A stretch of DNA of 64,000 nucleotides from Escherichia coli (lineage in GTDB: Bacteria > Pseudomonadota > Gammaproteobacteria > Enterobacterales > Enterobacteriaceae), in the NCBI RefSeq assembly GCF_003790525.1, contig NZ_CP033635.1; one strand, 5' to 3'. This document shows positions 21,516-63,000 of the stretch, in pieces. The notes beneath the pieces are model-generated. The model ran no database searches, had not been told where the DNA came from, and saw only the letters and a program-made list of their open reading frames with translations. The position numbers were made by a program, and so were the translations under genes. The stretch's first letter is position 1. Each line of letters starts with the position of its first letter.

Positions 21516-21544
21516 TTGACGCTGTTGTTTTTTCAACCTAAAGT
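21516..21544 (+). promoter_or_regulatory. Sigma-70 promoter of Sib antisense RNA, copy 2
   Basis: TTGACG (21516-21521), 17-bp spacer, TAAAGT (21539-21544). Confidence 0.55.
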
Positions 21545-21550
21545 AAAGGA

Positions 21551-28947: not shown

Positions 28948-28961
28948 AGCCTGTTTCCCTG

Positions 28962-29630: not shown

Positions 29631-29647
29631 TTTTATTCCCTTCTTAA

Positions 29648-38110: not shown

Positions 38111-40006
<1,896 letters not shown>

Positions 40007-40024
40007 TAATCCTCCCGCCAGAAG

Positions 40025-40058
40025 AATAAAACATAGCCCGGTATACAAGTGTATACCG
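40025..40058 (+). terminator. parE rho-independent terminator
   Basis: agcccggtatac-aagt-gtataccgggct followed by TTTTTT. Confidence 0.75.
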
Positions 40059-40069
40059 GGCTTTTTTGA

Positions 40070-42211
40070 TCAAAATTCCATTTTCACCGTGAATTGCACT
40101 TCACGAGGATCGCCAATCTGGTTGCCCAGATTATTTGTGGCGATGGAAGAGGTGTAATACGTTTTATCAAACAGGTTTTTGACGTTTAATTGCAGTGTGA
40201 CCGGATACTGCAATTTCATTTTGTATGCGGCGAAGGCATCGGCAACGAAATAGCCTGGCAGATAATAGTCAGCCCCATTGGTTGCCGAACGACGGCTTAC
40301 GCCATGTCCACCACCGCCAAACGTCAGTGTGTTATTGCCAGGCATGTTATGAATGTCATAAGTCAGGAATAGCGAACCGGTATGACGAGGAACATTCGGC
40401 AATGGTTTCCCTGCATAATCAGGATCCTCCAGAACCTTAGCATCGGTATAGCCGTAGCTGGCAATGATATTAATGTTTTCAGTTAATGCTCCCGCAAGGT
40501 CGACTTCTACCCCTCTTGAACGAACACGGCCTGCCGTTTTGGCAATGGTTTCATCACCAACACTTTCGGTATACAACACATTACGTTTATGGATATCAAA
40601 CAGCGCAATATCTGCGGTGATACCATCGAATAGCTCGAATTTTGCCCCGACTTCGTAAGCATTAGATGATTCCGGTGGAAGATCGCCAATGTAGCTGGCA
40701 ATTGACGACTGCGGCATAAATGTTTGCGAATAATTGGCAAATAAGGATACCGATGGCGTCAGTTTGTAGACTAACCCCAGTTTGGGAGTCCATTGTTCAT
40801 CGCGGCTGTCAGTATTGACATTAAAAGGACGGCCTTTACCCGCATACTGCGTGTAATACTGATAGCGGATCCCGGCGACGGCAATCCAGTTATCGGTCAG
40901 ATAGAGTGCGTCCTGTGCATACGCTGAGTAGCTCTCCTGTTTGATCGTCTGATCACTGTCCGACGCCGAAACCGTTGTACATTTGCTGGTATTACCATAA
41001 ACAGGGTTGTAGATATTGAAATCTTTAGCTTTTTTACAGCGAATCATATCTGTACGCAGAAGATCATAATATTCATATGACACCCCACCCAGAATCTCAT
41101 TATAGAATCCGGCAATATCAACATTCCCTTGCAGATCCGCACGAGTAGCATGCATACGCTGGGTAGATCCCTGAGTTGCATCAACACGCCGTGTCAGTGT
41201 TCCTGTCGTTGCATCATACGCGGTAACACGCGCCTGATTATCGCTGTATTTATCCTGGCTGTAGCTGTAATCAAAGCGCGCTGTCCACTGGCTATTGAGA
41301 TGATATTCTGCGTTGAGTTGCGCCAGATCGGACTTTCCATCTGTAATATTAAACGGTTCGTCAAAACGTATTTTTCGATCAACGTTTACGGGCTGTTTCG
41401 TCGTAAGGTCGAAAATCGTTCCACGATCGAACGGAGTTTTATAGTCCCGATGGGAATAGAGCATAGTTACTGTTGCATTATCACCAAACCAGGTGAGTGA
41501 CGGGGCAATAAATGTACTGCGCTCTTTACCGAAGTTTCGCCAGTAATCTTCATCCTGCACTTCCCCGGTAAGGCGATACGCCAGCTGAGTGCCTTCAATG
41601 GGACCTGTGATATCAAGTTGCCCAGTGCCGCCACCAAAACTGGAGGAGGTGGCTGAAACCGAACCATGGAATGTTTTTTCCGGGCGCTTGGTCACGACGT
41701 TAATCAGTCCACCAGGATCGAGAATGCCATACAGCGTGGAGGCCGGACCTTTTAGCACTTCCACACGTTCTGTGGCGGCGTTGAAACTGCGAGGAAGTAC
41801 AGTTCGCAGGCCGTTGGTCATGATGGAGCCATCCCGGTTAGCACCAAACCCACGACGTACAAAGGCGTCCTGAGTTCCGCCTAATGTATTGGTCTGTACC
41901 ACGTTACTGACGTTATAAAGCGCTTCATCCAGCGTCGTCGCATTCTGATTTTCCAGAACCTGATCGCTAACAGTATTGACCACCTGCGGGATATCCAGCA
42001 TCGGCATATCGGTTAATGTCGCCGTGGAAGTGCTCAGAGGTTGATAACCATCGGTTGCCTCAGTTGCGGTATTTGCATCTGCTGTAACAGTGATTGTTTC
42101 GCCATCTTTGGTCGTTACAGAGTCTGTTGCATGAATCATCGGTGCCGCAAAAAGCAGTGAAAAGAGCGCCCGACCTTTGAGTCCTGAGAATGAAGGTGTG
42201 AACATAGCCAT
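40070..42211 (-). CDS. TonB-dependent outer-membrane siderophore receptor (accessory)
   Basis: 713-aa ORF with a signal peptide, TonB box ETITVTA, plug and beta-barrel, and a C-terminal aromatic residue (MEF). Confidence 0.85.
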   Translation of the reverse strand: MAMFTPSFSGLKGRALFSLLFAAPMIHATDSVTTKDGETITVTADANTATEATDGYQPLSTSTATLTDMPMLDIPQVVNTVSDQVLENQNATTLDEALYNVSNVVQTNTLGGTQDAFVRRGFGANRDGSIMTNGLRTVLPRSFNAATERVEVLKGPASTLYGILDPGGLINVVTKRPEKTFHGSVSATSSSFGGGTGQLDITGPIEGTQLAYRLTGEVQDEDYWRNFGKERSTFIAPSLTWFGDNATVTMLYSHRDYKTPFDRGTIFDLTTKQPVNVDRKIRFDEPFNITDGKSDLAQLNAEYHLNSQWTARFDYSYSQDKYSDNQARVTAYDATTGTLTRRVDATQGSTQRMHATRADLQGNVDIAGFYNEILGGVSYEYYDLLRTDMIRCKKAKDFNIYNPVYGNTSKCTTVSASDSDQTIKQESYSAYAQDALYLTDNWIAVAGIRYQYYTQYAGKGRPFNVNTDSRDEQWTPKLGLVYKLTPSVSLFANYSQTFMPQSSIASYIGDLPPESSNAYEVGAKFELFDGITADIALFDIHKRNVLYTESVGDETIAKTAGRVRSRGVEVDLAGALTENINIIASYGYTDAKVLEDPDYAGKPLPNVPRHTGSLFLTYDIHNMPGNNTLTFGGGGHGVSRRSATNGADYYLPGYFVADAFAAYKMKLQYPVTLQLNVKNLFDKTYYTSSIATNNLGNQIGDPREVQFTVKMEF

Positions 42212-42311
42212 TTAGTCTGTTATCCCAAAAACTCGCGGATTGTCGCGAGTGAAAATTGTTTCTTATTGCTCACTAAGCACTATCCGTTTGTTATTTCGCC
42301 ATCGGATATGT

Positions 42312-42330
42312 AATTGAGAATCATTCAATC
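42312..42330. promoter_or_regulatory. Candidate Fur box in the divergent receptor/ABC promoter region
   Basis: aattGAGAATCATTCaatc partially matches the GATAATGATAATCATTATC consensus (about 12 of 19). Confidence 0.25.
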
Positions 42331-42584
42331 ACGCAGTAATGTAGTAGTAAATGAGAAATAACAAAAAATTGCTACATGTGTTTTTATGAAAAGTTTATAC
42401 AATTTGATTGCTTTTAATTTATTGATATTTAATGGTTTTGTTTTTATGTGCAAAAATATTTTACCTGTTATTTACCTTGTTTTTGTGTGGCTTTTAACTG
42501 CTTGACTACTACATTTTGTGGCGTCAAACTCTCAAAGGAGAATGAGTTTTATTTTTGTTTGTCTTTGATTAAGTTGGCGTACAC

Positions 42585-43394
42585 GTGGCACATAACGCAA
42601 AAGGGCAGGGGCTGATCCTCGACAATGTTTCTGCCGGGTATCACAAGAAAATCATTGTTGATGGTGTTTCTTTCTCCGTTCCCACAGAAAAAATGACCGT
42701 TCTGGTTGGGGCAAACGGCTGTGGAAAGTCGACGCTGCTCAGCACCATTGCTCGTATCTTGCAACCCATGGGCGGTTCGATATTGCTGGATGGTAAAGCG
42801 ATTCACGAGCAACCAACGAAAGCGTTATCCCGTAGACTTGGGATCTTGCCGCAGTCGCCATTATTGCCGGAGGGCTTAACCGTTTATGAACTGGTGTCGC
42901 GTGGGCGTTTTCCCTGGCAGAATTTCATTCGTCAATGGAGCGACGCCGATGAGCTGGCGGTAGAAGAGGCCCTGAAATTAACGGGTACGCAGGAGTTTGC
43001 ACATTTACCTGTTGAAAAACTCTCTGGTGGGCAGCGCCAGCGTTGCTGGATTGCGATGGTGTTGGCGCAAAAGACGCCTTATATCCTGCTGGATGAACCC
43101 ACAACCTGGCTTGATTTACGTTATCAGGTTGAAATTCTTGAGTTATTACATGATTTAACGCGTCATCACGGGCGTACAGTCGTCGTGGTGTTGCATGATC
43201 TGAATTTTGCCGTCAATTATGGCGATACGTTGATATTTTTACGCCAGGGGAAAGTGGTGCGTGTGTTGAATGAGGGGGAGCATTGCACGCCTGAGCTGGT
43301 AAAAGCGGTCTTTGACGTTGATGTTCACGCATCAATAAATCCTCTGACGGGAAAGCCGTTCTTCATGCCGTTTCGTGGTGTAGAAAAAGTATGA
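42585..43394 (+). CDS. ABC transporter ATP-binding protein (FecE/FepC-like)
   Basis: Walker A GANGCGKST, signature LSGGQRQR, Walker B ILLDEP; GTG start with a weak SD. Confidence 0.85.
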   Translation: MAHNAKGQGLILDNVSAGYHKKIIVDGVSFSVPTEKMTVLVGANGCGKSTLLSTIARILQPMGGSILLDGKAIHEQPTKALSRRLGILPQSPLLPEGLTVYELVSRGRFPWQNFIRQWSDADELAVEEALKLTGTQEFAHLPVEKLSGGQRQRCWIAMVLAQKTPYILLDEPTTWLDLRYQVEILELLHDLTRHHGRTVVVVLHDLNFAVNYGDTLIFLRQGKVVRVLNEGEHCTPELVKAVFDVDVHASINPLTGKPFFMPFRGVEKV

Positions 43395-44374
43395 TGCGCA
43401 CAGGGCTGGTTACTGTAATTTTCCTCGCCTTACTGCTGGTGGGATGCGTGGTATATCCAGGGATTGGTGCCCGATTTATTGCACCACAAACGGTGTTGCA
43501 GGCATTTCTTCATTTTGATCCGCAAAACTTCGATCACAACGTAATTGTAAGACTCCGTTTGCCGCGTTTAGCGGCAGCATTGCTTACCGGTGCTTCTCTT
43601 GGAGTTGCTGGTGCTTTGTTGCAGGCTGTCATTCGTAACCCATTGGGGGAGCCACATATTTTAGGCTTAAATGCCGGAGCCGCTCTTGCTGTCGTTGCTG
43701 CCAGTGCGCTTGGGCTGGCCTTTCCGGTTGGACGCCCACTGCTGGCATCTACGGGCGGCGCGTTATTGTTCCTGTTGATATTGCTGCTTTCCTCCGCAGG
43801 GCGTTCAGGGTTAACGCCAATGAAAGTTACTTTATGCGGCGTGGCGCTATCGGCGTTCGTGTCCTCAATAACGGCTGCAATCCTGATTCTTGACGAACAA
43901 ACACTGCTGGCGATGCGGACATGGCTAGCAGGTGATTTAGCGGGGCAGGATTGGGCGACGCTGGGTACGTCCGCCTGGTTTTCTCTGGGGGGATTTGTGT
44001 TAGCCCTTTACCTTGCACCCTCCCTTAACATGTTGGCACTGGGCGATCGCATGGCGCAGGGGCTGGGCGTCTCTGTATTCCGCACGCGAACATTCACCCT
44101 GCTTGCGATCGCGTTGCTCTGTGGCGCAGCCGTATCGATTGCTGGCCCCATTGGTTTTGTCGGCCTGCTAGTACCGCAGATTGTCCGGCGTCTGGTATCA
44201 GCGGATCTGCGCGTTCTGCTCCCTCTTTCAGCTTGTGTCGGCGCACTTTTGTTATTACTGGCAGATATTATTGCCCGTACGCTTTTCACACCCCATGAGT
44301 TAGCGACCGGTGTCATGACGGCGTTAGTTGGTGCGCCTGTTTTTGTCATTATGGCGACGAGGATGTTCAAATGA
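43391..44374 (+). CDS. ABC transporter permease, FecCD family
   Basis: 327-aa polytopic ORF; start overlaps the ATPase stop. Confidence 0.85.
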   Translation: MMRTGLVTVIFLALLLVGCVVYPGIGARFIAPQTVLQAFLHFDPQNFDHNVIVRLRLPRLAAALLTGASLGVAGALLQAVIRNPLGEPHILGLNAGAALAVVAASALGLAFPVGRPLLASTGGALLFLLILLLSSAGRSGLTPMKVTLCGVALSAFVSSITAAILILDEQTLLAMRTWLAGDLAGQDWATLGTSAWFSLGGFVLALYLAPSLNMLALGDRMAQGLGVSVFRTRTFTLLAIALLCGAAVSIAGPIGFVGLLVPQIVRRLVSADLRVLLPLSACVGALLLLLADIIARTLFTPHELATGVMTALVGAPVFVIMATRMFK

Positions 44375-45420
44375 GTCGGATAATGAACGTCGGGCTACGC
44401 CCACTACGTGTTGGTAAGTTTTCGACACTGGTACGCCCTAAAAATCTGCTGTTGCTTGGTGGGCTGTTCCTGCTTGCGGTTGGAATACTGATATTCGGTC
44501 TGATGCAGGGTTCTTTCTCTGTTCCGGCATCGGAAGTAGGACGAGCGTTGTTTGCTCCAGAAAACGTAAGCACAGACGCACGTTATATTGTGCAGGATAT
44601 TCGCTTGCCGAGAGTCATCATGGCATTGCTATGCGGGGCCATGTTAGGTATGGCAGGGGCCGCAATGCAATCCATTGCACGTAACGGCCTTGCCGATCCT
44701 GGTTTAATCGGCGTCAAAGAAGGATGTAGCGTGGCTGTGCTGTGGCTGATTTTCCAGTTTCCAATGCTGGGAATGTTCTGGCGTCCAGTGGCTGGTCTTG
44801 CTGGTGGCCTGTTGGTGGCTTTAATCGTGATTTTTTGTGCGCGCGATATTTCCCGCCCGCGATTTGTTCTGATTGGTATTGGTGTTTCCTGGTTTTTCGC
44901 CGCCGGTATCGGTGTATTTATGACCACTGCAGATGTTCGAGATGTACAAACTGCATTGATGTGGTTATCGGGAAGCCTGCATGCAGCTAACTGGATGTTA
45001 GTCGCTATTTCAGCCTGTTGGATGTTGCCAGCCGCTCTTTTATTGCTGTTCACCGCCAGGACGGCGGATATCGCTCTGCTTGGTCATCAGGTTGCAACCG
45101 GGTTAGGGGTGAATAGTTCTCGTCTGGCGTTGTTACGTGTCGCTGCACCCATAATCCTGACAGCCGTCTGCGTTTCGTGTGTTGGTAACATCGGTTTTGT
45201 CGGATTGATAGCACCCCATATATCACGTTTTATTCTACGTGGCGGGCAGACGACATTACTGCTGGGGAGCGCGGTATCGGGGGCGTTGTTAGTTATTCTG
45301 GCGGATAGCATTGGTCGTTTGGCTTTTTTGCCTTTGCAACTGCCTGCCGGAATCATTATCTCACTGATTGGTGGACCATTTTTTTTGCTACTGCTCTGGC
45401 AGCGCAGGAACAGTTTTTAA
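44371..45420 (+). CDS. ABC transporter permease, FecCD family
   Basis: 349-aa polytopic ORF; overlaps the upstream permease by 4 nt. Confidence 0.85.
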   Translation: MSRIMNVGLRPLRVGKFSTLVRPKNLLLLGGLFLLAVGILIFGLMQGSFSVPASEVGRALFAPENVSTDARYIVQDIRLPRVIMALLCGAMLGMAGAAMQSIARNGLADPGLIGVKEGCSVAVLWLIFQFPMLGMFWRPVAGLAGGLLVALIVIFCARDISRPRFVLIGIGVSWFFAAGIGVFMTTADVRDVQTALMWLSGSLHAANWMLVAISACWMLPAALLLLFTARTADIALLGHQVATGLGVNSSRLALLRVAAPIILTAVCVSCVGNIGFVGLIAPHISRFILRGGQTTLLLGSAVSGALLVILADSIGRLAFLPLQLPAGIIISLIGGPFFLLLLWQRRNSF

Positions 45421-45430
45421 CGGGAGTTAT

Positions 45431-46378
45431 ATGCGTTTATTTTTTTCTCTGCTGATACTGTTGTCATTTTTTTCCCGTGCAACAGAACCTGTTCAGGTAT
45501 TTACTGATGATTTAGGGCGCAAAGTCACTGTTCCTGCTCATCCAAAGAGAATTGTCTCTTTACACGATCTTGATATCACTATTCCTCTGATTGAGCTCGG
45601 TGTACCTCCTGTCGCCAGCCACGGGCGAACTCGGCCTGACGGTAGCCATTTCATTCGATCTGGCGCGTTATTGACAGGTGTCGACTTTGATAATTCATCG
45701 ATCGCCTTTATTGGTACCGCTGATATTGATATTGAAGCGATTGTGGCGGCAAAGCCTGACCTGATCATCACAGAACCGACCCGTAATACGCCCATTGAAC
45801 AACTTGAAAAAATTGCGCCCACGGTGAGCATTGATCATCTCAAAGGGGGCGCGCCAGAAATCTATCGCAAGCTGGCAGAACTTACAGGAACGCAGTCGCA
45901 GCTGGCGATACTTGAACGCCGCTATCAGGCACAAATCAATGCGCTGAAGGCGACGCTGGACAGCCAAAAAATAACGGTATCGGTGATTCAGGCAAACCAG
46001 GGAAAAATTAATGTGATGCATAGCTATCATTCGCTGGGGCGGGTATTACGCGATGCTGGTTTTCGTTTTCCGCCGCTGATTGAGAGCATTCCTGAAGGTG
46101 GGCGAATGGATGTGAGCGCGGAGCGTTTACCTGAACTGGATGCCGATTTTGTTTTTGCAACCTGGCGCGGTGACACCGGTGGTAAACCTCAGGATGAGCT
46201 GGCAGCAATGGAAAAAGTCATGCCGGGATGGTGTCAGTTTCTGACTGCCTGTCGTTCCGGGCGTTATGTGCTGATTTCTCGTGAAGAGGCGATTTCTAAC
46301 TCCTTTGCATCTCTGGGGCTGATGGCTGCGCAGATACAATCACAAATTGCAGGGCGACCTCTACCGGAGGATAAATGA
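45431..46378 (+). CDS. Periplasmic substrate-binding protein (FecB/FepB-like, cluster A)
   Basis: Product starting MRLFFSLLILLSFFSRA (signal peptide) at the ATG at 45431, with a GGGAG SD. Confidence 0.8.
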   Translation: MRLFFSLLILLSFFSRATEPVQVFTDDLGRKVTVPAHPKRIVSLHDLDITIPLIELGVPPVASHGRTRPDGSHFIRSGALLTGVDFDNSSIAFIGTADIDIEAIVAAKPDLIITEPTRNTPIEQLEKIAPTVSIDHLKGGAPEIYRKLAELTGTQSQLAILERRYQAQINALKATLDSQKITVSVIQANQGKINVMHSYHSLGRVLRDAGFRFPPLIESIPEGGRMDVSAERLPELDADFVFATWRGDTGGKPQDELAAMEKVMPGWCQFLTACRSGRYVLISREEAISNSFASLGLMAAQIQSQIAGRPLPEDK

Positions 46379-47262
46379 TCCAGAAAGATAAAGCGCGGGT
46401 TGATATTTTTGGTGAGCGTTTTCGCACTCGCGCGAGTCAGTTAACGCCTGGGTTAAGAGTTGTCGCCAGCTACATTAATGAGCATCGTGAAGTGGTACTC
46501 GAGCAAACGGCGATGGAAATTGCGGCCACGTTGAACACTTCCGATGCCACAGTTATCAGGGCTATACAGGCCCTGGGGTTTGCCGGGCTGCGTGATCTGA
46601 AACGCACTCTGGAACAGTGGCTTGGTCCAGCCCTTAGTTCCAGCGAAAAGATGTCTACGACGGTGAGTAACTTGACGAGCGATGTTAACACCGCAATCGA
46701 CTTTGTTCTTGAAGGGCATTTGTATACCTGTAATGTCCTGTCAGAGCCTGAAAACCGCCACGCGCTTGCGCAAGCTGTAGCGTTGTTGGTGCAGGCACGG
46801 CAAGTCGCTATTTTTGGCATTGGCGCTTCGGGTATCCTGGCGGACTATACCGCACGACTATTCAACCGCATAGGTTTGCCTGCCACGGCACTAAACCGTA
46901 CGGGTATTGGCCTTGCCGAGCAACTGATCGCGCTTCAACGTGGCGATGTTCTGATCATGATGGCGCAAAAATCTGCGCACCGGGAAGGGCTGACAACGCT
47001 TCGTGAGGCGAGGCGGCTGGGGATCCCTGTTATTTTGCTGACAAACGCGCTGGATTCACGTTTTAGCAAAGACGCCAGTATCGTGATTCATGTTCCGCGC
47101 GGGGATGAAAAAGGGAAAACGCCGCTACATGGTACGGTATTGTTGTGTCTGGAAATGATTGTCTGGTCGGTAGCTTCCGCAGTGCCGCAGCGTGCGGTTA
47201 AAACCATTAAGCGAATTAACGATTTCCATCGAGGACTGAAAACGGGAAGAAAGAATGGCTAA
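46375..47262 (+). CDS. RpiR/MurR-family transcriptional regulator (HTH plus SIS domain)
   Basis: 295-aa ORF with an N-terminal HTH (TAMEIAATLNTSDATVIRAIQALGFAGLRDLK) and a SIS phosphosugar-binding fold (IFGIGASGILA); overlaps the binding-protein stop. Confidence 0.8.
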   Translation: MIQKDKARVDIFGERFRTRASQLTPGLRVVASYINEHREVVLEQTAMEIAATLNTSDATVIRAIQALGFAGLRDLKRTLEQWLGPALSSSEKMSTTVSNLTSDVNTAIDFVLEGHLYTCNVLSEPENRHALAQAVALLVQARQVAIFGIGASGILADYTARLFNRIGLPATALNRTGIGLAEQLIALQRGDVLIMMAQKSAHREGLTTLREARRLGIPVILLTNALDSRFSKDASIVIHVPRGDEKGKTPLHGTVLLCLEMIVWSVASAVPQRAVKTIKRINDFHRGLKTGRKNG

Positions 47263-47306
47263 TCTGGGCTGAGACCGGTAGCAACACCGGCCTCTTTTCA
47301 GGAATG

Positions 47307-47621
47307 TTAAATCCCCGGTTGCAGGATGCGGATATTCATCTCCAGCACATCGCCTTTTACGGCCTCGCTGTACGCTTTCATGTGCGGGGTCTGCAAGTGC
47401 GCTTCAAGATGCGCGATGCTTTCCCACTGCTCAATCATCACGATAGAATCCGGTGCCATAGACTGGAAACTCACGCCAGCAGCGCAATCCACCATTGGCG
47501 CATAGCCGTGGCAACCTTCTTCTTTCAGTACGGTTGGAACGATTTTAGCAAACTGATCCAACACTGCCTGACGGTGATGTTGACCAGGACGAGTACGGAT
47601 TTCTGCGATTACTGTAATCAT
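47307..47621 (-). CDS. ygiN: Quinol monooxygenase
   Basis: 104-aa ORF MITVIAEIRTRPGQHHRQAVLDQF... (ABM domain). Confidence 0.9.
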   Translation of the reverse strand: MITVIAEIRTRPGQHHRQAVLDQFAKIVPTVLKEEGCHGYAPMVDCAAGVSFQSMAPDSIVMIEQWESIAHLEAHLQTPHMKAYSEAVKGDVLEMNIRILQPGI

Positions 47622-47651
47622 GGTTAACTCCTTCTAAAGCCAGAGCTCTAG

Positions 47652-48233
47652 TTAACCAAAAATTTCCACAAGATGCTTGCGATATTCTTCAGTATAGCGG
47701 GGAACATCAGGCATTTTTATCACGTCATTAGCGATAAATGTCGGCAGCGGTTCCATGCCAAGGAATTGGTTTGCTTTATGAAACGGCAGGTACACACCGT
47801 CAACACCAACGCCGTGGAAGAACTGATCTTTTTCGGTGAAGGCTTCCATTGGTGCGTTCCAGGTCAGAGAAAGCATATATTTTTTGCCCTGTACCAGGCC
47901 GCCGGAGCCGTATTTTTTCGACGGATCTTTGCGGGTACGACCATCGCTGGCATACAGCGTCCCGTGACCTTCGGTGAATACATCATCAATGTATTTTTTC
48001 ACTGTCCACGGCGCGCCCATCCACCAGCCTGGCATCTGCCAGATCACCACATCAGCCCAGAGAAAGTTTTGTACTTCCGCTTTGACATCGTAGTCGCTGT
48101 CGGCGCGAACGATGCGGACATCATGCCCGAGGTCGCGCAGTGTGCCATCCGCGACTTCGGTCAGGGTGTCGTTCAGTTGACCATTGGAGTGGGCGAATTT
48201 TTTCGCGCCGTTGATAATCAGGATGTTGCTCAT
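47652..48233 (-). CDS. mdaB: NADPH:quinone oxidoreductase
   Basis: 193-aa ORF MSNILIINGAKKFAHSNGQLNDTL... Confidence 0.9.
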   Translation of the reverse strand: MSNILIINGAKKFAHSNGQLNDTLTEVADGTLRDLGHDVRIVRADSDYDVKAEVQNFLWADVVIWQMPGWWMGAPWTVKKYIDDVFTEGHGTLYASDGRTRKDPSKKYGSGGLVQGKKYMLSLTWNAPMEAFTEKDQFFHGVGVDGVYLPFHKANQFLGMEPLPTFIANDVIKMPDVPRYTEEYRKHLVEIFG

Positions 48234-50944: not shown

Positions 50945-51427
50945 ATGACAAACCTGACACTGGATGTAAATATTATCGATTTCCCATCAATCCCTGTGGC
51001 GATGTTGCCGCACCGCTGTAGCCCTGAGTTGCTCAACTACAGTGTGGCGAAATTTATCATGTGGCGTAAAGAGACGGGGCTTTCTCCTGTTAACCAAAGC
51101 CAGACTTTTGGCGTCGCCTGGGACGACCCTGCCACCACCGCACCAGAAGCGTTTCGCTTTGATATCTGCGGCAGCGTTAGCGAACCGATCCCCGATAATC
51201 GTTATGGCGTAAGTAATGGTGAACTTACCGGTGGACGTTATGCTGTGGCCCGCCATGTTGGCGAGCTGGACGATATTTCACACACGATATGGGGCATCAT
51301 TCGCCACTGGCTTCCGGCAAGCGGCGAAAAAATGCGCAAGGCCCCGATCCTGTTTCACTACACCAATCTTGCCGAAGGGATGACAGAGCAGCGACTGGAA
51401 ACAGATGTTTATGTGCCGTTGGCGTGA
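50945..51427 (+). CDS. ygiV: GyrI-like domain protein
   Basis: 160-aa ORF MTNLTLDVNIIDFPSIPVAML... Confidence 0.8.
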   Translation: MTNLTLDVNIIDFPSIPVAMLPHRCSPELLNYSVAKFIMWRKETGLSPVNQSQTFGVAWDDPATTAPEAFRFDICGSVSEPIPDNRYGVSNGELTGGRYAVARHVGELDDISHTIWGIIRHWLPASGEKMRKAPILFHYTNLAEGMTEQRLETDVYVPLA

Positions 51428-51535
51428 TGAAGAATCTTTACCGGAGTGTGAGCCAAATCACTCGCGATAAGTTTGAGCGAACAATGCCACAGGCGTATTG
51501 TTGTTGGGCTTATAATTTCTCCGGTAAGGAATACC

Positions 51536-53143
51536 ATGTATACGCGAAATTTATTATGGCTGGTCAGCCTGGTAAGTGCGGCTCCTCTCTACGCTGCTGA
51601 CGTTCCCGCCAACACACCGCTCGCCCCGCAACAAGTCTTTCGTTACAACAATCATAGCGACCCAGGCACGCTCGACCCGCAAAAGGTGGAGGAGAATACT
51701 GCCGCGCAGATTGTGCTGGATCTGTTTGAAGGTCTGGTATGGATGGACGGTGAAGGCCAGGTGCAGCCCGCTCAGGCTGAACGCTGGGAGATACTGGACG
51801 GCGGCAAGCGCTATATTTTCCATCTGCGTAGCGGTTTGCAGTGGTCAGACGGTCAGCCTCTGACGGCAGAGGATTTTGTCCTCGGCTGGCAGCGCGCGGT
51901 TGACCCGAAAACGGCAAGCCCTTTTGCTGGCTATCTGGCACAGGCGCACATTAACAATGCCGCGGCTATTGTTGCGGGTAAAGCAGATGTTACATCGCTG
52001 GGTGTCAAAGCGACGGATGATCGTACTCTTGAAGTTACGCTTGAGCAGCCAGTTCCTTGGTTCACGACGATGCTCGCCTGGCCGACGCTGTTCCCGGTTC
52101 CTCATCATGTCATCGCTAAACATGGCGATAGCTGGAGTAAGCCAGAGAACATGGTTTACAACGGTGCCTTTGTGCTTGATCAGTGGGTAGTTAACGAAAA
52201 GATTACTGCACGCAAAAATCCAAAGTACCGCGATGCGCAACATACAGTATTGCAACAGGTTGAGTATCTGGCGCTGGATAATTCGGTCACCGGCTATAAC
52301 CGCTATCGCGCGGGAGAGGTCGATCTCACCTGGGTTCCGGCGCAGCAAATTCCCGCCATTGAAAAATCACTGCCTGGCGAGCTACGAATTATTCCGCGTC
52401 TGAACAGCGAATATTACAACTTCAACCTTGAGAAACCGCCATTTAACGATGTGCGGGTGCGTCGGGCGCTATATCTTACGGTTGATCGACAGCTTATTGC
52501 GCAAAAGGTACTGGGGTTGAGAACGCCCGCAACTACGCTGACGCCGCCAGAGGTAAAAGGCTTTAGCGCGACGACGTTCGATGAACTGCAAAAGCCGCTG
52601 AGTGAGCGCGTCGCGATGGCAAAAGCCTTGTTGAAACAGGCGGGATACGACGCCTCTCATCCGCTTCGCTTTGAGCTGTTCTACAACAAGTACGATCTGC
52701 ATGAAAAGACCGCGATAGCGTTGTCTTCCGAATGGAAAAAATGGCTGGGTGCACAGGTGACGCTGCGCACAATGGAGTGGAAAACTTATCTTGATGCCCG
52801 ACGAGCCGGTGATTTCATGTTGTCTCGGCAGTCGTGGGATGCGACGTACAATGATGCCTCCACCTTTCTGAACACGCTTAAGAGCGATAGCGAGGAAAAT
52901 GTCGGCCACTGGAAAAACGCGCAGTATGACGCCTTACTAAACCAGGCGGCACAAACGGCTGATGCAACAAAGCGTAATGCGTTGTATCAGCAGGCAGAAG
53001 TGATCATCAACCAGCAGGCACCGCTCATTCCTGTCTATTATCAGCCGTTAATCAAACTGCTTAAACCCTACGTTGGCGGTTTTCCGCTGCATAATCCCCA
53101 GGATTATGTCTACAGCAAAGAGTTGTATATCAAGGCACATTGA
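51536..53143 (+). CDS. ygiS: Periplasmic solute-binding protein, family 5 (OppA-like)
   Basis: Product starting MYTRNLLWLVSLVSAAPLYA at the ATG at 51536, with a TAAGGA SD. Confidence 0.85.
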   Translation: MYTRNLLWLVSLVSAAPLYAADVPANTPLAPQQVFRYNNHSDPGTLDPQKVEENTAAQIVLDLFEGLVWMDGEGQVQPAQAERWEILDGGKRYIFHLRSGLQWSDGQPLTAEDFVLGWQRAVDPKTASPFAGYLAQAHINNAAAIVAGKADVTSLGVKATDDRTLEVTLEQPVPWFTTMLAWPTLFPVPHHVIAKHGDSWSKPENMVYNGAFVLDQWVVNEKITARKNPKYRDAQHTVLQQVEYLALDNSVTGYNRYRAGEVDLTWVPAQQIPAIEKSLPGELRIIPRLNSEYYNFNLEKPPFNDVRVRRALYLTVDRQLIAQKVLGLRTPATTLTPPEVKGFSATTFDELQKPLSERVAMAKALLKQAGYDASHPLRFELFYNKYDLHEKTAIALSSEWKKWLGAQVTLRTMEWKTYLDARRAGDFMLSRQSWDATYNDASTFLNTLKSDSEENVGHWKNAQYDALLNQAAQTADATKRNALYQQAEVIINQQAPLIPVYYQPLIKLLKPYVGGFPLHNPQDYVYSKELYIKAH

Positions 53144-57997: not shown

Positions 57998-58005
57998 TGG
58001 ACCAA

Positions 58006-58037
58006 TTCAATGCCCCACAGAGTGGTGGGGCATTGAA
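58006..58037. terminator. Bidirectional hairpin between ftsP and the TRAP operon
   Basis: caatgccccac-(loop)-gtggggcattg, an 11-bp perfect stem. Confidence 0.45.
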
Positions 58038-58067
58038 AATTACTCAGTATGCAGTCTTCATTGTGTA

Positions 58068-59414
58068 TCAGGTCGAAAATAATCCTGGCAGCATCAGACT
58101 AAGCTGCGGGAAATAACAAATAATTGCCATTACTACAAACAATGCCAGAAACATCGGCAGTAATGGTTTTATTGCCCTGTCGATACTGACCTTACCAATG
58201 CTGCAACCAACAAACAGAATGGTGCCAACGGGTGGTGTACAAAGGCCAATGGTCAAGTTGAACACCATAATAATACCGAAGTGGATGGGATCTATTCCCA
58301 GATGCTGAGCGATCGGCAGGAAAATAGGCGTAAATATCAGGATCGCCGGTGTGATATCCATAAAGGTACCGACGATCAACAGAATGATATTGATGATAAA
58401 CAGAATAACCCATTTGTTATCCGAAACACTGGTAATCAGTTCGTTGATCAACTCAGGAACATCAGCATTCGTCATGGCCCATGACATCCCCATCGAGCAG
58501 CCTACCAGTAACAGAACAATTGAACTGGTTACTACCGAATCTAACAGAATATCATTGAGCTTCTTAAAAGTGATTTCCCGGTAAATCATCGCCAGGGCTA
58601 AACTATAAATTACCGCAATTGCCGATGCTTCCGTGGGCGTGAATACCCCTGCGATAATACCGCCAATAATGATAAAAATAAGCATCAGGCTGGGAATTGA
58701 TTCGCGGAATACCTGCAAAAATTGATGAAAATTGATACGTTCGGCCACCGGATAATGGTTACGTCGCGCATAAAGTGCCGCCACAAACATTAAAGCAGCA
58801 GCGGTGAGAATGCCTGGCAAGTATCCGGCTAAGAACAACGCAGCAACAGAAGTCCCGCCACTGGCGAGGGAATAAACAATCAACACATTGCTCGGTGGGA
58901 TCATCAGGCCAATGGGGGCAGAGGCAATATTAACCGCTGCTGAAAACGCCGGATCATAGCCCTCTTTTTCTTGCAGTGGTGACATAATTCCACCTACCGC
59001 GGCGGCTGACGCAACGGCTGAACCTGAAATCGCACCAAACAGCGTATTCGCGAGGATATTACAATGAGCCAGTGAGCCAGGAAGACGCCCAACTAATGCT
59101 TGCGCTAGGTTAACCAGTCGTCTGGCTATACCACCGGTATTCATAATGTTTCCGGCTAACACGAAGAAGGGAATGGCTAATAGCGTAAAGCCATCCAGCC
59201 CCACAGTCATCTTTTGCGAAATCACAGAAATGGCGGCATCGGGTGGTAAGGCAGTAATAATAGATAACAGCGAAGAAAGACCAATCGCAAAAGTAATTGG
59301 CACACCGATTGCCAGCATGACGGCAAAACTGCCAAATAAAATTAAGACGGGGTAGATATATTCAAAGTCCATATTTCCCTCGTTAATGAAAATTCCGTTT
59401 ACGATAGTTGTCAA
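58068..59414 (-). CDS. TRAP transporter large permease (DctM family)
   Basis: 448-aa polytopic ORF; the true start may be the internal MDFEYIYP. Confidence 0.85.
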   Translation of the reverse strand: MTTIVNGIFINEGNMDFEYIYPVLILFGSFAVMLAIGVPITFAIGLSSLLSIITALPPDAAISVISQKMTVGLDGFTLLAIPFFVLAGNIMNTGGIARRLVNLAQALVGRLPGSLAHCNILANTLFGAISGSAVASAAAVGGIMSPLQEKEGYDPAFSAAVNIASAPIGLMIPPSNVLIVYSLASGGTSVAALFLAGYLPGILTAAALMFVAALYARRNHYPVAERINFHQFLQVFRESIPSLMLIFIIIGGIIAGVFTPTEASAIAVIYSLALAMIYREITFKKLNDILLDSVVTSSIVLLLVGCSMGMSWAMTNADVPELINELITSVSDNKWVILFIINIILLIVGTFMDITPAILIFTPIFLPIAQHLGIDPIHFGIIMVFNLTIGLCTPPVGTILFVGCSIGKVSIDRAIKPLLPMFLALFVVMAIICYFPQLSLMLPGLFST

Positions 59415-59865
59415 TAATATTCATTACTGAATACCAGACCAGAATAAGTCCACTGACAGGCATAACCCAATATACTTTATCCATTGGCCATTTTAATACT
59501 GGAGAGATTTGTCCAACATGTTGTGCTTTTTCAACAACAATATTCCCGCCATAGATCATGAAAATAACCGCAAAGACCGTAATAATAATTTGGATAAAAC
59601 TGTCAAGCGTCAGAACAGATGCAGCCGGAAGTTTTTGAGCCAACAAATCAATGGCCAGATGTTTTTTTAACCCCGCAGTATATACACCGCCAAGTAAAAT
59701 CATCCACATAAATAAAATCTGGGTGAACTCATCAAGCACAGTGCTGGGAGCGTTAAAAATAAAACGTGCAATAACTTGCTAGGTTACGCAGAACACCATA
59801 ATGGCGAGAATAATGCAGCAACATCCGGCAAGGATCTTATTAAGAATATGAGTGAGTGTTCGCAT
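59383..59865 (-). pseudogene. TRAP transporter small permease (DctQ family) interrupted by an in-frame TAG at codon 29
   Basis: ATG at 59865 with a GGAAG SD, giving MRTLTHILNKILAGCCCIILAIMVFCVT, then TAG (59781-59779), then the frame continues QVIARFIFNAPSTVLDEFTQILFMWMILLGG... to 59383. Confidence 0.6.
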
Positions 59866-59906
59866 AAGTCTTCCATGAAAAGGCAGGAATTACCTGCCCA
59901 TTAGGG

Positions 59907-60890
59907 TTACATACTTTCTACTAGCTCAAGGTTTTTGGCTGATTGTGCATCTTTCGCCTTGAATTCATCGTATAACGGTTTGACGCGTTCTTTGAAAGCG
60001 GATTTATCAACATCAACAACTGTTGCGTTCATCCCTTTCATTTTGTCGTAGGCTTCTTTTTCAGCCGCAGGCCAGATGACGTCCTTCATCTGCATCATGG
60101 ACTCATCGGCTGCTTTTAATAATGCCGTGCGCTCTTTATCACCAAGTTTATTCAACACGTTGGTGCTGATAATTAACACATCAGGTACCATGGTGTGTTC
60201 ATCACGTGAATAGACTTTTGCGACTTCGGCGTGACGCATATCGGAATAGACAACGGTATTGTTCTCTCCGCCATCAACCACTCCTTGCTGAAGTGCGGTG
60301 TAGAGTTCGCCTTGCGCCATCGGGGTAGCGACACCACCGAGTGCTTTCATCATTGCAATGGCGCTGGGGCTTTGTTGAACCCTGATTTTCATTCCCGCTA
60401 AATCTTCAGGTTTTGTAATCGGTTTATTGGAATAAAAACTTCTCGCACCGCCGTCATAGTACGTAATACCAACAAAACCTTTGCTTTCTGATGAATTAAG
60501 TATTTTTTTACCTAAATCACTTTGCAGAACACGATAATAGTGATCACGGTCGCGGAATAAGAACGGCAGACTGAAAAGGCTGTAATCTGGAGCAAATGAT
60601 TCTAGTGATGCGGCATTAACCTTAACCATCTGTAATGCACCGGAGTTCATTAATTCCAGTGATTCACGCTCATTACCTAATGTTGCATTTGGGTAAATGC
60701 GAATAACTAATTCACCATTAGAATACTCTTTGGTTTTATCCGCTAAATAGCTTAATGCTTTATGGACAGCATGGCTTTTATCCTGATTATGACTCAGTTT
60801 TAATGTTGTTTTTGCCAGTGTGGTATTAGATATTAATAAACAACTGGTTAACAGCATAAGCGATGCCGTCAGAGGACGAAGTGCTTTCAT
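59907..60890 (-). CDS. TRAP transporter periplasmic solute-binding protein (DctP family)
   Basis: 327-aa ORF with a signal peptide and DctP-type fold. Confidence 0.85.
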   Translation of the reverse strand: MKALRPLTASLMLLTSCLLISNTTLAKTTLKLSHNQDKSHAVHKALSYLADKTKEYSNGELVIRIYPNATLGNERESLELMNSGALQMVKVNAASLESFAPDYSLFSLPFLFRDRDHYYRVLQSDLGKKILNSSESKGFVGITYYDGGARSFYSNKPITKPEDLAGMKIRVQQSPSAIAMMKALGGVATPMAQGELYTALQQGVVDGGENNTVVYSDMRHAEVAKVYSRDEHTMVPDVLIISTNVLNKLGDKERTALLKAADESMMQMKDVIWPAAEKEAYDKMKGMNATVVDVDKSAFKERVKPLYDEFKAKDAQSAKNLELVESM

Positions 60891-60962
60891 ATCCTGCTCC
60901 TGGTTAATATAACAGAAACGATAAATACAGCGCTTTTCTATCGTTATAATAAAAAGTAGTGA

Positions 60963-61973
60963 TTAATTCTCTGCCAGATAATGGAATATTCCTGCCGGAA
61001 CCGGAATACCTTCCTGTTGGCATTTTTCTTTGTAGTGTATTTGCGGATCGTTCGGCGCTAACACTTTTTCGACACCGGGAGCCGGTTTAACGGCATGCAG
61101 CTCCGTGACCATTTTCGCCATGGTTTTTGCAAAAACAGGATTGCCGAGCTTTTTCGGATCGATGGCAATAACCAAACTTGCCAGCTTACGCATCTTGTCA
61201 TAATCACCATACATGCGAACAATATGGTTGCCAAAATTCGCATTCATCAGCACGCCAGTCAGTGCATCAATAGCCAGTGCAATGCCTGAACCTTTGTGTT
61301 GGCCGAAAGGTAGCAGGTTTTCAATCTTATACGGATCAGTGGTGCCATAACCGTTTTTATCTATCGCCAGCCCTTCACCAATATGTTTTCCGGTTTCCTT
61401 TGCATGAAGTATTTTGCCGAAAGCCGTGGCACTGGTCGCCATATCAACAATCATCGGATGGCTGTTTTCCACCGGGAAACCAAAGGCGATGGGGTTAGTT
61501 CCCAAAAAGCGCTCGGCGCCGCCATGGGGAGCCACACAGGTATCGGTTTGCGTCATTACGATAGCAACCAACCCTTTGTTGGTGATCATCTCTGCAAAAT
61601 AAGATAACGCACCACAGTGAGACGTGTTTTTAACGCTAACAAAACCGAGGCCCTCTTGCTGGGCCAGTTTAATAGCGTGCTCAGTGGCGCTAATTAATGC
61701 GGAATGCCCCATTCCGTCGTCAGAGTCGAGAATGGCCACTGACGGTGAAATTTGCTCAATGCTAAACTGCGGGGCTTTATTTAACCCTCCGGCAGCAAGG
61801 CGGGTGCAATAATGTTCGACACGCATAACACCATGTGAATGCACACCTGTAATATCGGCATGTACTAAAACATCTGTCACCTGTTGTGTGGTGTCGGTAT
61901 CCAGCCCGGCGGTATGTAATTTGTGGTGCACCAGTGATTTTAAATTTTCTTCACTGACATAAACAGTTGTCAT
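60963..61973 (-). CDS. Ldh_2-family (malate/L-lactate/sulfolactate type) NAD(P)-dependent dehydrogenase, YiaK-like
   Basis: 336-aa ORF ...HGVMRVEHY...GHSA...HKGSGIA... Confidence 0.8.
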   Translation of the reverse strand: MTTVYVSEENLKSLVHHKLHTAGLDTDTTQQVTDVLVHADITGVHSHGVMRVEHYCTRLAAGGLNKAPQFSIEQISPSVAILDSDDGMGHSALISATEHAIKLAQQEGLGFVSVKNTSHCGALSYFAEMITNKGLVAIVMTQTDTCVAPHGGAERFLGTNPIAFGFPVENSHPMIVDMATSATAFGKILHAKETGKHIGEGLAIDKNGYGTTDPYKIENLLPFGQHKGSGIALAIDALTGVLMNANFGNHIVRMYGDYDKMRKLASLVIAIDPKKLGNPVFAKTMAKMVTELHAVKPAPGVEKVLAPNDPQIHYKEKCQQEGIPVPAGIFHYLAEN

Positions 61974-61983
61974 ATTTGTTCCC

Positions 61984-63000
61984 TTAAAAAGTGATCACAC
62001 CCTTGACCATATTTTTATTTTCTACAACGTTACGCTGGTAATCTTCGCCAACACTAAAGAAATTGAACGCCTGGTTTTTCATTAAATTTTCGTGAATTTT
62101 ATTGCTGCGCATCAGTTCAATCACCAACGCAAAATCTTCCCGTGTGGCATTGCGGCTGCTGAGTAACGTTGTCTCTTTTTTATGGAAGGTCGGATCGTCA
62201 ATAACAAGTTCACCAATGTACAAACCGATGAAAACAATTTTGCCGCCATGACGAATAAGATTTACATCATGACTCATTGAAGCTTTATTTCCCGTCGCAT
62301 CCAGTACTACGCAAGCCAGTTCGCCTCCAAATACTTCACTAAGCGCGGCAATAAAACCTTCCTGTGTTGGGTCGAAGACATTAATTGCCAGATGATCCAC
62401 AACGTGCTGGCGACGTTGACAGTCAATATCAGCAACAACAACATGCGCCCCTTTAGCCCTGGCGATGGCTGCGGTAGCCAAACCGATTGGCCCAGCACCA
62501 ATCACCAGTACGTTTTGTTCAGCCTTGATCTCTGCCCGACGAACGGCATGTGCACCAATGGCGAAACATTCAACCAATGCTCCGGCACTGTCGCTGACCT
62601 CGTCAGGGAGAGGCACAAGGTTGTCTTCACGTACCGCAAGGTACTCACTAAAACCCCCATCCTGATGCACGCCATACAGCGAAACACGTTCGCAGCAGTT
62701 CGTTTTCTCTTCCCGACAGGCTGCGCACTCGCCACACGGAATGCATGGGATGACGGAATAGCGCTGGCCTGATTGTGCTGTTTGGCACTGGCTGCCTCGC
62801 GAAACCGCTTCGGCGCATATTTCATGACCTAATACACGTGGGTAGCTAAAAAAAGGCTGTCTGCCGGCAAAAGCGTGAATATCAGTACCACAAATACCCA
62901 CAGCTTTGATTTTTAACAGCACTTCATTATCTGCTGGTGTGGGAATATCCTTTTCCACATATTCCATAACGCCAGGCTGCTGACAAATTAATGTTTTCAT
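61984..63000 (-). CDS. Zinc-dependent medium-chain alcohol/polyol dehydrogenase
   Basis: 338-aa ORF with GHE, CxxC...C zinc sites and a GAGPIG NAD-binding motif. Confidence 0.8.
   Translation of the reverse strand: MKTLICQQPGVMEYVEKDIPTPADNEVLLKIKAVGICGTDIHAFAGRQPFFSYPRVLGHEICAEAVSRGSQCQTAQSGQRYSVIPCIPCGECAACREEKTNCCERVSLYGVHQDGGFSEYLAVREDNLVPLPDEVSDSAGALVECFAIGAHAVRRAEIKAEQNVLVIGAGPIGLATAAIARAKGAHVVVADIDCQRRQHVVDHLAINVFDPTQEGFIAALSEVFGGELACVVLDATGNKASMSHDVNLIRHGGKIVFIGLYIGELVIDDPTFHKKETTLLSSRNATREDFALVIELMRSNKIHENLMKNQAFNFFSVGEDYQRNVVENKNMVKGVITF

Follow-up and report, generated by a model that had tools for sequence, protein, structure and literature searches.

Why should a siderophore-type uptake operon end in a regulator of the RpiR family, and what would such a regulator sense? 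The question is raised by an ORF in a 7,193-bp block (positions 40070-47262) flanked by parE and ygiN in the E. coli chromosome, within the 64,000-nucleotide stretch of DNA analyzed here (the window). A preliminary description regarded an RpiR-type regulator as unusual for an iron-uptake cluster, which we judge correct. This ORF corresponds to fitR, with which the fit island (fitA <> fitBCDE-fitR) ends; the island encodes an accessory uptake system of the siderophore type (see the table). The block matches exactly the size of the 'fit operon' region of BEN2908 (7,193 bp; PMC12928451), and the fit region is 100% identical, with unchanged gene order, in E. coli SMS-3-5 and other strains. All six genes were found in the layout published by Ouyang and Isaacson in 2008, i.e. 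six genes with a bidirectional promoter and an HTH + SIS regulator: a divergent receptor, fitA, followed by the ATPase, two permeases, the binding protein and the regulator, with no difference from the published operon at the level of the locus (PMC2593036). The RefSeq annotation agrees on the genes around fitR (a Peripla_BP_2 binding protein, two FecCD permeases, an ABC ATPase and the divergent TonB-dependent receptor). The identity of fitR, its HTH + SIS composition and its role as a repressor were published in 2006-2008, which makes the observation correct but already known. Searching the literature for subsequent studies of FitR, for siderophore clusters with RpiR regulators and for the old locus tags turned up nothing beyond the 2008 paper and brief mentions.

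Table. Features of the fit island and of its divergent promoter region (positions in the window)
Feature	Position	Strand	Basis
fitA, TonB-dependent siderophore receptor, 713 aa	40070..42211	-	ORF, RefSeq, TIGR01783, structure matches
Fur-box-like palindrome AATTGAGAATCATTCAAT, over the fitA promoter -10 (TG.TTGAAT)	42312..42329		intergenic alignment, Fur consensus
O1 TGTAGTAGTA, candidate FitR operator half-site	42340..42349		intergenic alignment, invariant block
O1' CTACA, inverted partner of O1 at a distance of 32 bp, conserved in part	42372..42376		alignment; weakest of the three candidate sites
O2 TTGACTACTACA, candidate FitR operator overlapping the fitBCDER promoter -35 TTGACT	42502..42513		intergenic alignment, invariant block
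Fur-box-like GAGAATGAGTTTTATTTTT, downstream of the fitB -10	42538..42556		conserved block; 13/19 Fur consensus
fitB, ABC transporter ATPase, GTG start	42585..43394	+	ORF, RefSeq
fitC, FecCD permease	43391..44374	+	ORF, RefSeq
fitD, FecCD permease	44383..45420 (RefSeq start; ORF opens 44371)	+	ORF, RefSeq
fitE, periplasmic siderophore-binding protein	45431..46378	+	ORF, RefSeq, PDB match
fitR, RpiR-family (HTH_6 + SIS) auto-repressor, pocket loop A197-Q-K-S-A-H202	46375..47262	+	ORF, Pfam, AlphaFold2, fold matches; function PMC2593036
Weak terminator-like hairpin CCGGTAGCAACACCGG with T-rich tail, 3' of fitR	47275..47290	+	consensus scan, whose count of terminator-like sites was no higher than in shuffled sequence

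FitR belongs to the RpiR/MurR family by both of its domains, the N-terminal HTH_6 and the C-terminal SIS fold. The HMM search suggested in the preliminary description identified both of them (PF01418, residues 15-81, E 1.9e-9; PF01380, residues 138-247, E 1.3e-13), and the fold matches of the AlphaFold2 model (mean pLDDT 92.8, with a helical N-terminal domain) agree with this assignment: the best folds in the PDB are the full-length RpiR regulators RccR-KDPG (8k3b), V. vulnificus NanR (4ivn) and S. pneumoniae NanR, together with the RpiR SIS domain 3sho, and Foldseek gave a probability of 1.00 for each of RccR, NanR, MurR and 3sho. The ORF begins with ATG and encodes 295 aa; its start codon overlaps the stop codon of fitE by 4 nt (ATGA, 46375-46378), which bears out the reported coupling to the binding protein. 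The extended N-terminus (K..RVD..GERFR.R) is kept in orthologues down to 66% identity, and thus supports the 295-aa start; the conserved ORF has a predicted mass of 32.2 kDa, as against the 28 kDa given in PMC2593036. FitR falls into none of the NCBIfam equivalogs, the best scores being 79.6, 72.5, 65.7 and 51.6 bits against cutoffs of 920, 378, 400 and 296 (for MurR, 26.8/408; AlsR, 65.7/400; HexR, 51.6/296).

FitR acts as a Fur-independent repressor of the two divergent fit promoters and therefore represses itself; the promoter-binding EMSA and the reporter tests that had been suggested are already among the published evidence, which comprises lacZ fusions, qRT-PCR, a knockout, complementation and EMSA (PMC2593036). 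The expression of fitB-lacZ dropped 3.2-fold upon over-expression of FitR and was de-repressed in the knockout, repression was restored by complementation, and the shift of the probe, which covered the whole fitA-fitB intergenic fragment, was competed by unlabelled promoter DNA (PMC2593036). Repression was 2-5 fold, in LB with no ligand added, and no ligand for FitR is reported in that paper (PMC2593036).

The alignment of the fitA-fitB intergenic region revealed invariant blocks that are conspicuous amid otherwise diverged DNA. Two of them, O1 (on the fitA strand TTTACTACTACA, overlapping the -35 TTTACT) and O2 (its consensus drawn from 53 distinct sequences), are candidate operators, with the proviso that these blocks include the -35 hexamers, which are expected to be conserved regardless. 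They are the arms of the inverted repeat I2 (14 nt, 93% complementary) and the only two sites of TGTAGTAGT in the window, O2 being on the minus strand. The divergent TGTAGTAGT/ACTACTACA pair was seen in 57 loci, and the motif accompanies FitR homologues with as little as 45% identity, across three gene arrangements (including the Pantoea-type and Orrella loci). These motifs, which lie across the -35 of each promoter next to Fur-like boxes, contain a half-site like the TGTAGT/ACTACA bound by RccR (PMC11014249), and we infer from the aligned sequences that FitR recognizes TGTAGTAGT/ACTACTACA as candidate operators of this type. The partner site O1' is kept in Escherichia, Enterobacter, Kosakonia, Citrobacter and the Pantoea/Serratia-type regions, and is absent from Raoultella, Klebsiella and Kluyvera. 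The spacing between O1 and O2 across loci (164-166, 178-189 or 124 bp) is not constant in helical turns, so that looping between them is speculative. The consensus promoter scan identified no canonical sigma-70 promoter in the intergenic region, hence the -35/-10 assignments rest on conserved spacing; the proposed promoters have good -35 hexamers and weak -10 hexamers. Among the Fur-like boxes, GAGAATGAGTTTTATTTTT is the best match to the Fur consensus in the region, while the 19-mer from position 42310, which overlaps AATTGAGAATCATTCAAT, agrees at 12/19 positions, both matches being modest; the AATTGAGAATCATTCAAT palindrome hardly varies among the 18 cassettes of the alignment or in loci of the Pantoea/Serratia type. 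Direct control of fit by Fur has been published (PMC2593036; PMC7157518).

With one candidate FitR site overlapping the -35 (TT[GT]ACT) of each divergent promoter and the Fur-like boxes probably covering the -10/+1 regions, this arrangement suggests two independent locks on the fit operon: low iron would open the Fur lock, and a second signal would open that of FitR. With low confidence, the second signal may be a small molecule, probably an anion, that occupies the SIS pocket. But what kind of molecule? The preliminary description took the SIS domain to be of the phosphosugar-binding kind, as in MurR or RpiR, and this part is not supported. In the alignment FitR lacks the phosphate-binding loop [ST]-x-[ST]-G found in MurR, AlsR, HexR/YebK, RccR and NanR: where the characterized members have SQSGRS, SSSGST, SYSGSK, SHTGRT or THSGRT, FitR has the conserved A197-Q-K-S-A-H202. 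Three of the four phosphate-holding Ser/Thr residues, which are said to be conserved also in NanR and MurR (PMC11014249), are replaced (S183, S185 and S188 of RccR by A197, K199 and H202), and only S152 is kept. In the FitR clade the loop is conserved as Q-K-S-x-H, and Q198-K-S-x-H202 together with the pocket residues R165, R242 and H252 is strictly conserved across genera, down to 40-45% identity; of the representatives of the best-scoring 150 clusters at 50% identity, 104 are near full length (250-560 aa), and none of these has the canonical motif. On the other hand, the pocket retains S152, S200 and the conserved basic residues R161, R165, K199, H202, R242 and H252, and RccR binds the phosphate by backbone amides as well, so a phosphorylated ligand of some kind is still conceivable.

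Does FitR nevertheless sense a phosphosugar like MurR, AlsR, HexR and NanR, with Fit importing a glycosylated siderophore or another glycoconjugate, or with uptake tied to the sugar-phosphate status? Its fold is that of a true SIS domain, the effectors of the characterized RpiR members compared are all phosphorylated, and FitR retains both a basic pocket and, in the first phosphate loop, S152. In some variant cassettes (Erwinia sp. JUb26 and Orrella) there are also two PstS-family genes, similar to phosphate-binding proteins, which could hint at a phosphorylated ligand, and the cassette of Pantoea coffeiphila probably carries such a pair too, given an equal 3-kb gap. Against this, neither FitR nor any of its orthologues has kept the [ST]-x-[ST]-G loop, FitR scores well under the MurR, AlsR and HexR cutoffs, and no kinase or isomerase gene, nor any sugar-metabolism gene, accompanies FitR in the six annotated contexts (E. 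coli, Kosakonia, Raoultella, Erwinia, Pantoea and Orrella), where the sole PTS gene lies ~8 kb off in one Kosakonia locus; the absence of sugar-metabolism genes weakens the idea further, and we consider it unlikely.

The receptor speaks against the glycosylated siderophore as well. FitA exceeds the TIGR01783 cutoff (375 bits); its nearest equivalogs are FhuA, FoxA and FhuE, each below its own cutoff, and its nearest solved structures FoxA, FetA and FhuA, whereas FepA-family models gave only weak local matches of ~75 residues. Salmochelin, a glycosylated enterobactin, enters via a FepA-type receptor. Because FitA resembles FoxA, FhuA and FhuE, a salmochelin-type (glycosylated catecholate) substrate was judged unlikely, and the sugar-containing ligand proposed in the preliminary description is not borne out. 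The PDB entries 3BE5/3BE6 match FitE along its entire chain (residues 19-315, E 1e-194). One later citing paper states that the Fit substrate is not enterobactin and that none had been assigned by 2018 (PMC5907654), and another ascribes uptake of Fe2+/Co2+/Cd2+ to Fit (PMC12928451).

Or perhaps FitR has no small-molecule effector at all, and its degenerate SIS domain serves only for oligomerization, making the protein a plain negative-feedback damper on an accessory transporter after release of Fur? The modest repression in ligand-free LB, the position of fitR as the last gene of the operon it represses and the loss of the canonical ligand residues would all fit such a role. The strict conservation of Q198-K-S-x-H202, R165, R242 and H252 is, however, hard to explain with an unused pocket, and this option too seems improbable. 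We favor, with low confidence, a signal that would be the imported compound or its derivative (substrate induction combined with negative autoregulation) rather than a canonical phosphosugar, because the Ser/Thr loop is replaced by the conserved Q-K-S-x-H and sugar-metabolism genes are missing from the contexts.

The distribution of the cassette bears on whether fit is the true target of FitR. The authors of the 2008 paper left open that FitR might be a global regulator (PMC2593036), and if it mainly controlled other loci (globally, or the neighbors ygiN-mdaB and qseBC), its place at the end of the fit operon would be incidental. A homologue from Xanthobacter (52% identity) indeed has neither iron genes nearby nor the motif. 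However, the motif occurs nowhere else in the window, fitB-fitR is all-or-none in E. coli (matches in 1870 of the 5426 complete genomes, all 1870 holding at least 80% of the operon), and the cassette moves as a unit between differing genomic flanks, being present also in Kosakonia and Raoultella with unrelated flanks. FitR is co-inherited with the uptake genes in ~80 species; all six genes are found at 49 of the best 80 species loci, and at most of the others FitR is still beside a TonB-dependent receptor and/or a siderophore-binding protein. The Orrella homologue (45% identity) forms the end of a receptor-ABC operon. A homologue with 41% identity (P0140) adjoins NicO, HupE/UreJ-like and YgiW-like genes and lacks the motif, and the contexts of three distant homologues (P0128, P0129 and P0132) are on short contigs or uninformative. 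The Xanthobacter and P0140 contexts indicate that the link to uptake is strong only in the Enterobacterales clade and Orrella. Together with the published genetics and EMSA (PMC2593036), this co-inheritance answers the concern that the regulator might act on a neighboring locus rather than on its own operon, which we regard as highly improbable.

Our best joint explanation, to which we assign a probability of about 70%, is that the ORF is fitR of the fit island, that FitR acts on the TGTAGTAGT/ACTACTACA candidate sites, that Fur and FitR form two locks, and that the effector is likelier an imported compound than a phosphosugar. A more far-reaching and distinctly tentative proposal is that the FitR clade comprises the first RpiR/SIS regulators with a Q-K-S-x-H pocket, remodelled with loss of the usual phosphate-holding serines, that sense a non-phosphosugar, the candidate being an imported (xeno)siderophore or metallophore or its breakdown product, in a substrate-inducible, Fur-gated switch of Enterobacterales operating via the TGTAGTAGT candidate operators over the two -35s. 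Within this siderophore-sensing proposal, a FitR tetramer could possibly bridge the two divergent -35 operators. The lost phosphate-binding loop and the TGTAGTAGT/ACTACTACA motif over both -35s appear to be unreported: the searched literature yielded no report of this loss, of the FitR operator sequence or of the distribution of FitR over three gene arrangements. Roughly one in three complete E. coli genomes, and many other Enterobacterales, carry the fit island, which iron limitation induces in carbapenem-resistant Klebsiella. The candidate operator sequence would allow clean reporter and footprint experiments. A conserved pocket that is not built for phosphosugars calls for ligand screens that reach beyond sugar phosphates, and FitR-based reporters could reveal the Fit substrate should the transported compound be what FitR senses.

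Among known regulators, the best PDB match in both sequence and fold is RccR of P. aeruginosa (RccR/HexR branch, 8k3b; PMC11014249), with 22-23% identity. Both are two-domain HTH_6 + SIS repressors, and the TGTAGT/ACTACA half-site recurs in the candidate FitR operator, but RccR grips the phosphate of KDPG via S139, S183, S185 and S188, of which FitR retains the first alone; RccR controls central carbon metabolism and FitR a siderophore transporter, and the RccR operator is a compact palindrome while the candidate FitR sites are ~165-189 bp apart. MurR, AlsR (RpiR) and YebK/HexR of E. coli and NanR of V. vulnificus share with FitR the family and fold (18-26% identity) and, like it, are each a repressor encoded beside the target operon, but they keep [ST]-x-[ST]-G (SYSG, THSG, SHTG and SSSG) where FitR has A-Q-K-S. 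The best SIS-only match, 3sho, an RpiR-family SIS domain from Sphaerobacter thermophilus (rmsd 2.4-2.6 A, TM-score 0.83-0.85 by target length), likewise lacks the motif, yet with 22% identity to FitR it has a different pocket loop, S-V-W-R-Y-L; the title of the entry names no function. Substrate-responsive regulation of siderophore uptake layered on Fur is familiar from the AraC-type regulators PchR, YbtA and AlcR and from FecIR-type surface signalling, in which the transporter is made only when low iron coincides with a specific signal. FitR resembles these systems as a second, system-specific regulator over Fur, substrate sensing by FitR being hypothetical, and differs from them in that they are activators of unrelated families, whereas FitR represses and belongs to the RpiR family.

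The 46375-47262 ORF encodes a protein with an HTH_6 domain (residues 15-81, E 1.9e-9) and a SIS domain (residues 138-247, E 1.3e-13), as identified with Pfam. The AlphaFold2 model, built with 92 homologues, has a mean pLDDT of 92.8, and its top matches in the PDB are full-length RpiR regulators (P. aeruginosa RccR with KDPG, V. vulnificus NanR with ManNAc-6P and S. pneumoniae NanR) and the RpiR SIS domain 3sho. The domain composition proposed in the preliminary description is thereby confirmed, as is the 4-nt coupling to the binding-protein gene, whose stop codon overlaps the fitR start in the ATGA at 46375-46378. Genes for a Peripla_BP_2 binding protein, two FecCD permeases and an ABC ATPase lie 5' of fitR, and a TonB-dependent siderophore receptor gene is divergent from this operon.

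The locus is the published fit system, with fitA for the receptor, fitB for the ATPase, fitC and fitD for permeases, fitE for the binding protein, and fitR (PMC2593036). This identification is supported by the length of 40070-47262 (7,193 bp, the same as the 'fit operon' region listed for BEN2908, PMC12928451), by the whole-chain match of FitE to 3BE5/3BE6 in the PDB (E 1e-194), and by the naming of the Fit pathway as c3771-c3775 in the CFT073 Fur-regulon study (PMC7157518). FitR has been in print since 2006-2008 and the earlier claim of novelty therefore fails. Over-expressed FitR lowered fitB-lacZ expression 3.2-fold, a fitR knockout de-repressed it and complementation restored repression, while refolded His-tagged FitR shifted a 347-bp fitA-fitB fragment in EMSA, with competition by the unlabelled fragment (PMC2593036). 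Action of the regulator on its own operon, for which EMSA and reporter tests had been suggested, is thus already documented. FitR is given there as 28 kDa, whereas the conserved 295-aa ORF predicts a protein of 32.2 kDa and a start at Met47 one of 26.9 kDa (~28 kDa with a His tag), so the N-terminal 46 residues of the HTH domain may have been missing from the published construct. The FitR homologues also include a cluster of 246-aa 'partial' E. coli entries (P0008).

The 40000-47700 segment is 100% identical to E. coli SMS-3-5 and other strains and belongs to the E. coli chromosome, with nudF-yqiB-cpdA-yqiA-parE on the left of the receptor gene and ygiN-mdaB-qseCB-ygiW-ygiV-ygiS on the right of fitR. 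The operon part (42212-47262) was matched in 1870 of 5426 complete E. coli genomes, with coverage of at least 80% in every one of the 1870, which indicates an all-or-none accessory island. Two further stretches of the window have a low GC content: ~28276-31444 (minus strand; 0.44-0.46) between ygiC and ygiD, with aryl-sulfate sulfotransferase, dsbA/dsbL-type and dsbI genes, which looks like another accessory insertion, and ~58000-64000 (0.44-0.47), with dehydrogenases and a TRAP transporter, whose small-permease gene (~59383-59865) is, in the SMS-3-5 annotation, a pseudogene interrupted by an internal stop. ygiV directly adjoins ygiS (50945-53143), whereas the K-12 map has the mqsR-mqsA toxin-antitoxin pair between them, so this pair appears to be absent from the present strain. 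According to the RefSeq annotation, Ibs type I toxin genes lie opposite the Sib RNAs (see table).

Coordinates of features in the window and, where marked, in a homologous locus
Feature	Position	Strand	Description
fitR	46375-47262	+	ORF, 295 aa, ATG start
Conserved block 1	42312-42349		AATTGAGAATCATTCAAT, ~10 nt, then TGTAGTAGTA
Conserved block 2	42502-42556		TTGACTACTACA, ~24 nt, then GAGAATGAGTTTTATTTTT
Two Sib antitoxin RNAs	21140-21289, 21516-21665	+	Rfam RF00113, 142 and 144 bits
FMN riboswitch 5' of ribB	25131-25279	+	Rfam RF00050, 120.9 bits; also in RefSeq
PstS-like gene pair, Orrella dioscoreae	L008 7010-8946

FitR orthologues (66-99% identity) occur across Enterobacterales, and scanning a single genome for each species yielded 297 relatives. 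Among the best 80 of these loci, 49 have the complete six-gene set in unchanged order (with unrelated flanking DNA in Kosakonia and Raoultella), while in about 20, from Pantoea, Serratia, Erwinia, one Tatumella and one record titled Enterobacter cancerogenus, FitR is divergent from another TonB-dependent receptor (35-39% identical to FitA) with no ABC genes. A ferrichrome/ferrioxamine-type binding-protein gene follows the receptor in one annotated Pantoea locus, and such a binding protein alone is left in Erwinia typographi. In Erwinia sp. JUb26 (L050 6926-9992) fitE and fitR are separated by a PepSY_TM gene, for a membrane protein of the FoxB/PiuB type, together with two PstS-family binding-protein-like genes; the same 3-kb gap is found in Pantoea coffeiphila (L054). 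The betaproteobacterium Orrella dioscoreae has co-directional genes for a receptor, an ATPase, two permeases, a binding protein, two PstS-like proteins and an RpiR protein 45% identical to FitR; the phosphate-binding-protein-like pair thus recurs in variant siderophore-type cassettes of this species, Erwinia sp. JUb26 and probably Pantoea coffeiphila. On the metagenome contig L010, a protein 41% identical to FitR (P0140) has the loop Q-K-S-K-H and neighbours that are metal-related rather than siderophore genes (NicO, RcnR-like, HupE/UreJ-like and the BOF protein YgiW-like); the TGTAGTAG motif was not found on this contig.

Alignment of the fitA-fitB intergenic DNA from 18 species revealed two near-invariant blocks amid diverged sequence (see table). 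TGTAGTAGT is the reverse complement of ACTACTACA, hence TT[GT]ACTACTACA is what either divergent promoter shows when read the way it is transcribed; the initial six bases resemble a -35 hexamer, and 17 nt past it lies TG.TTGAAT (fitA side) or CAa.aT (fitB side). The 64-kb window has only two copies of TGTAGTAGT, both in this intergenic region, and a repeat finder lists the two as an inverted repeat of 14 nt with 93% complementarity. Such a divergent pair was found in 57 loci, with spacings of 164-166 bp (19), 178-189 bp (37) or 124 bp (1). We predict from these alignments that the blocks contain the FitR operator, a comparative addition to a known system. Conservation of a -35 hexamer would be expected anyway, and no canonical promoter came up in a simple scan of the region. 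In the Pantoea/Serratia-type loci the TGTAGTAGT motif is situated between the receptor and FitR genes, adjoining a AATTGAGAATCATTCAA box and ~30 bp from a CTACA partner, and an inverted motif pair precedes the Orrella operon. RccR, the closest structurally characterised relative, binds TGTAGT/ACTACA (PMC11014249). Five Pantoea/Serratia-type loci (L071, L081, L084, L092 and L093) have an extra TGTAGTAGT close to where the receptor gene ends (~7465-7531), which may represent an internal operator, a coincidental match or a trace of shared descent; in L080, which lacks it and has annotated neighbours, the equivalent position is just 5' of a FhuD-like binding-protein gene.

Two A/T-rich palindromic blocks agree with the Fur consensus at 12/19 and 13/19 positions, and Fur control of fit has been published (PMC2593036; PMC7157518). 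We propose a model in which the promoter pair would carry two locks, FitR covering the -35 and spacer and Fur covering the -10/+1 region; such an arrangement fits the published mutual independence of FitR and Fur repression (PMC2593036).

As regards the substrate, still given as unknown, with enterobactin excluded, in a 2018 paper (PMC5907654), a sugar-containing compound such as a glycosylated siderophore had been suggested. FitA passes the TonB-siderophore subfamily model and is closest to the FhuA, FoxA and FhuE models and to the FoxA, FetA and FhuA structures, its matches to FepA-family models being weak and local, and FitE has weak similarity to binding proteins of the FepB, FhuD and YfiY types. 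Nothing among these model and structure matches favours glycosylation. No sugar kinase or isomerase gene was found beside FitR in six annotated gene contexts; the sole PTS gene among them, in a Kosakonia locus, is ~8 kb distant.

In RccR, S139, S183, S185 and S188 hold the phosphate of KDPG, and four conserved S/T are said to do so in NanR, MurR and RccR (PMC11014249). Alignments made with phmmer and with MAFFT, the latter including E. coli MurR, YebK/HexR and AlsR, P. aeruginosa RccR and V. vulnificus NanR, place S152 of FitR at the first of these positions. The second loop, however, reads SYSGSK, SHTGRT, THSGRT, SQSGRS and SSSGST in MurR, YebK/HexR, AlsR, RccR and NanR, and A197-Q-K-S-A-H202 in FitR, a register with which the model agrees (strand 192-196, loop 197-202, helix from 203). 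Twelve FitR-clade sequences, with identities as low as 40%, show no variation at Q198 and H202 and hardly any at K199 and S200. FitR also scores far below the cutoff of every NCBIfam equivalog. Its SIS fold is thus true, but not of the MurR/RpiR kind, which weakens the proposed phosphosugar sensing, while domain identity, coupling and action on the operon stand. The pocket is conserved and has stayed basic, which suggests an anionic ligand; this could be phosphorylated, since S152, S200, backbone amides and Lys/His might still provide phosphate contacts. What is added here is modest, a predicted operator and a non-canonical pocket, but makes the questions of effector and substrate testable. 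The [ST]-x-[ST]-G motif is absent from every one of the closest representatives of 50%-identity clusters, with identities down to 28%, which mostly have A-Y-G-R-x-Y at the loop and have R165, G177, D191, E204, R242 and H252 in common with FitR; 3sho, a structural-genomics SIS domain, belongs to this non-canonical loop group.
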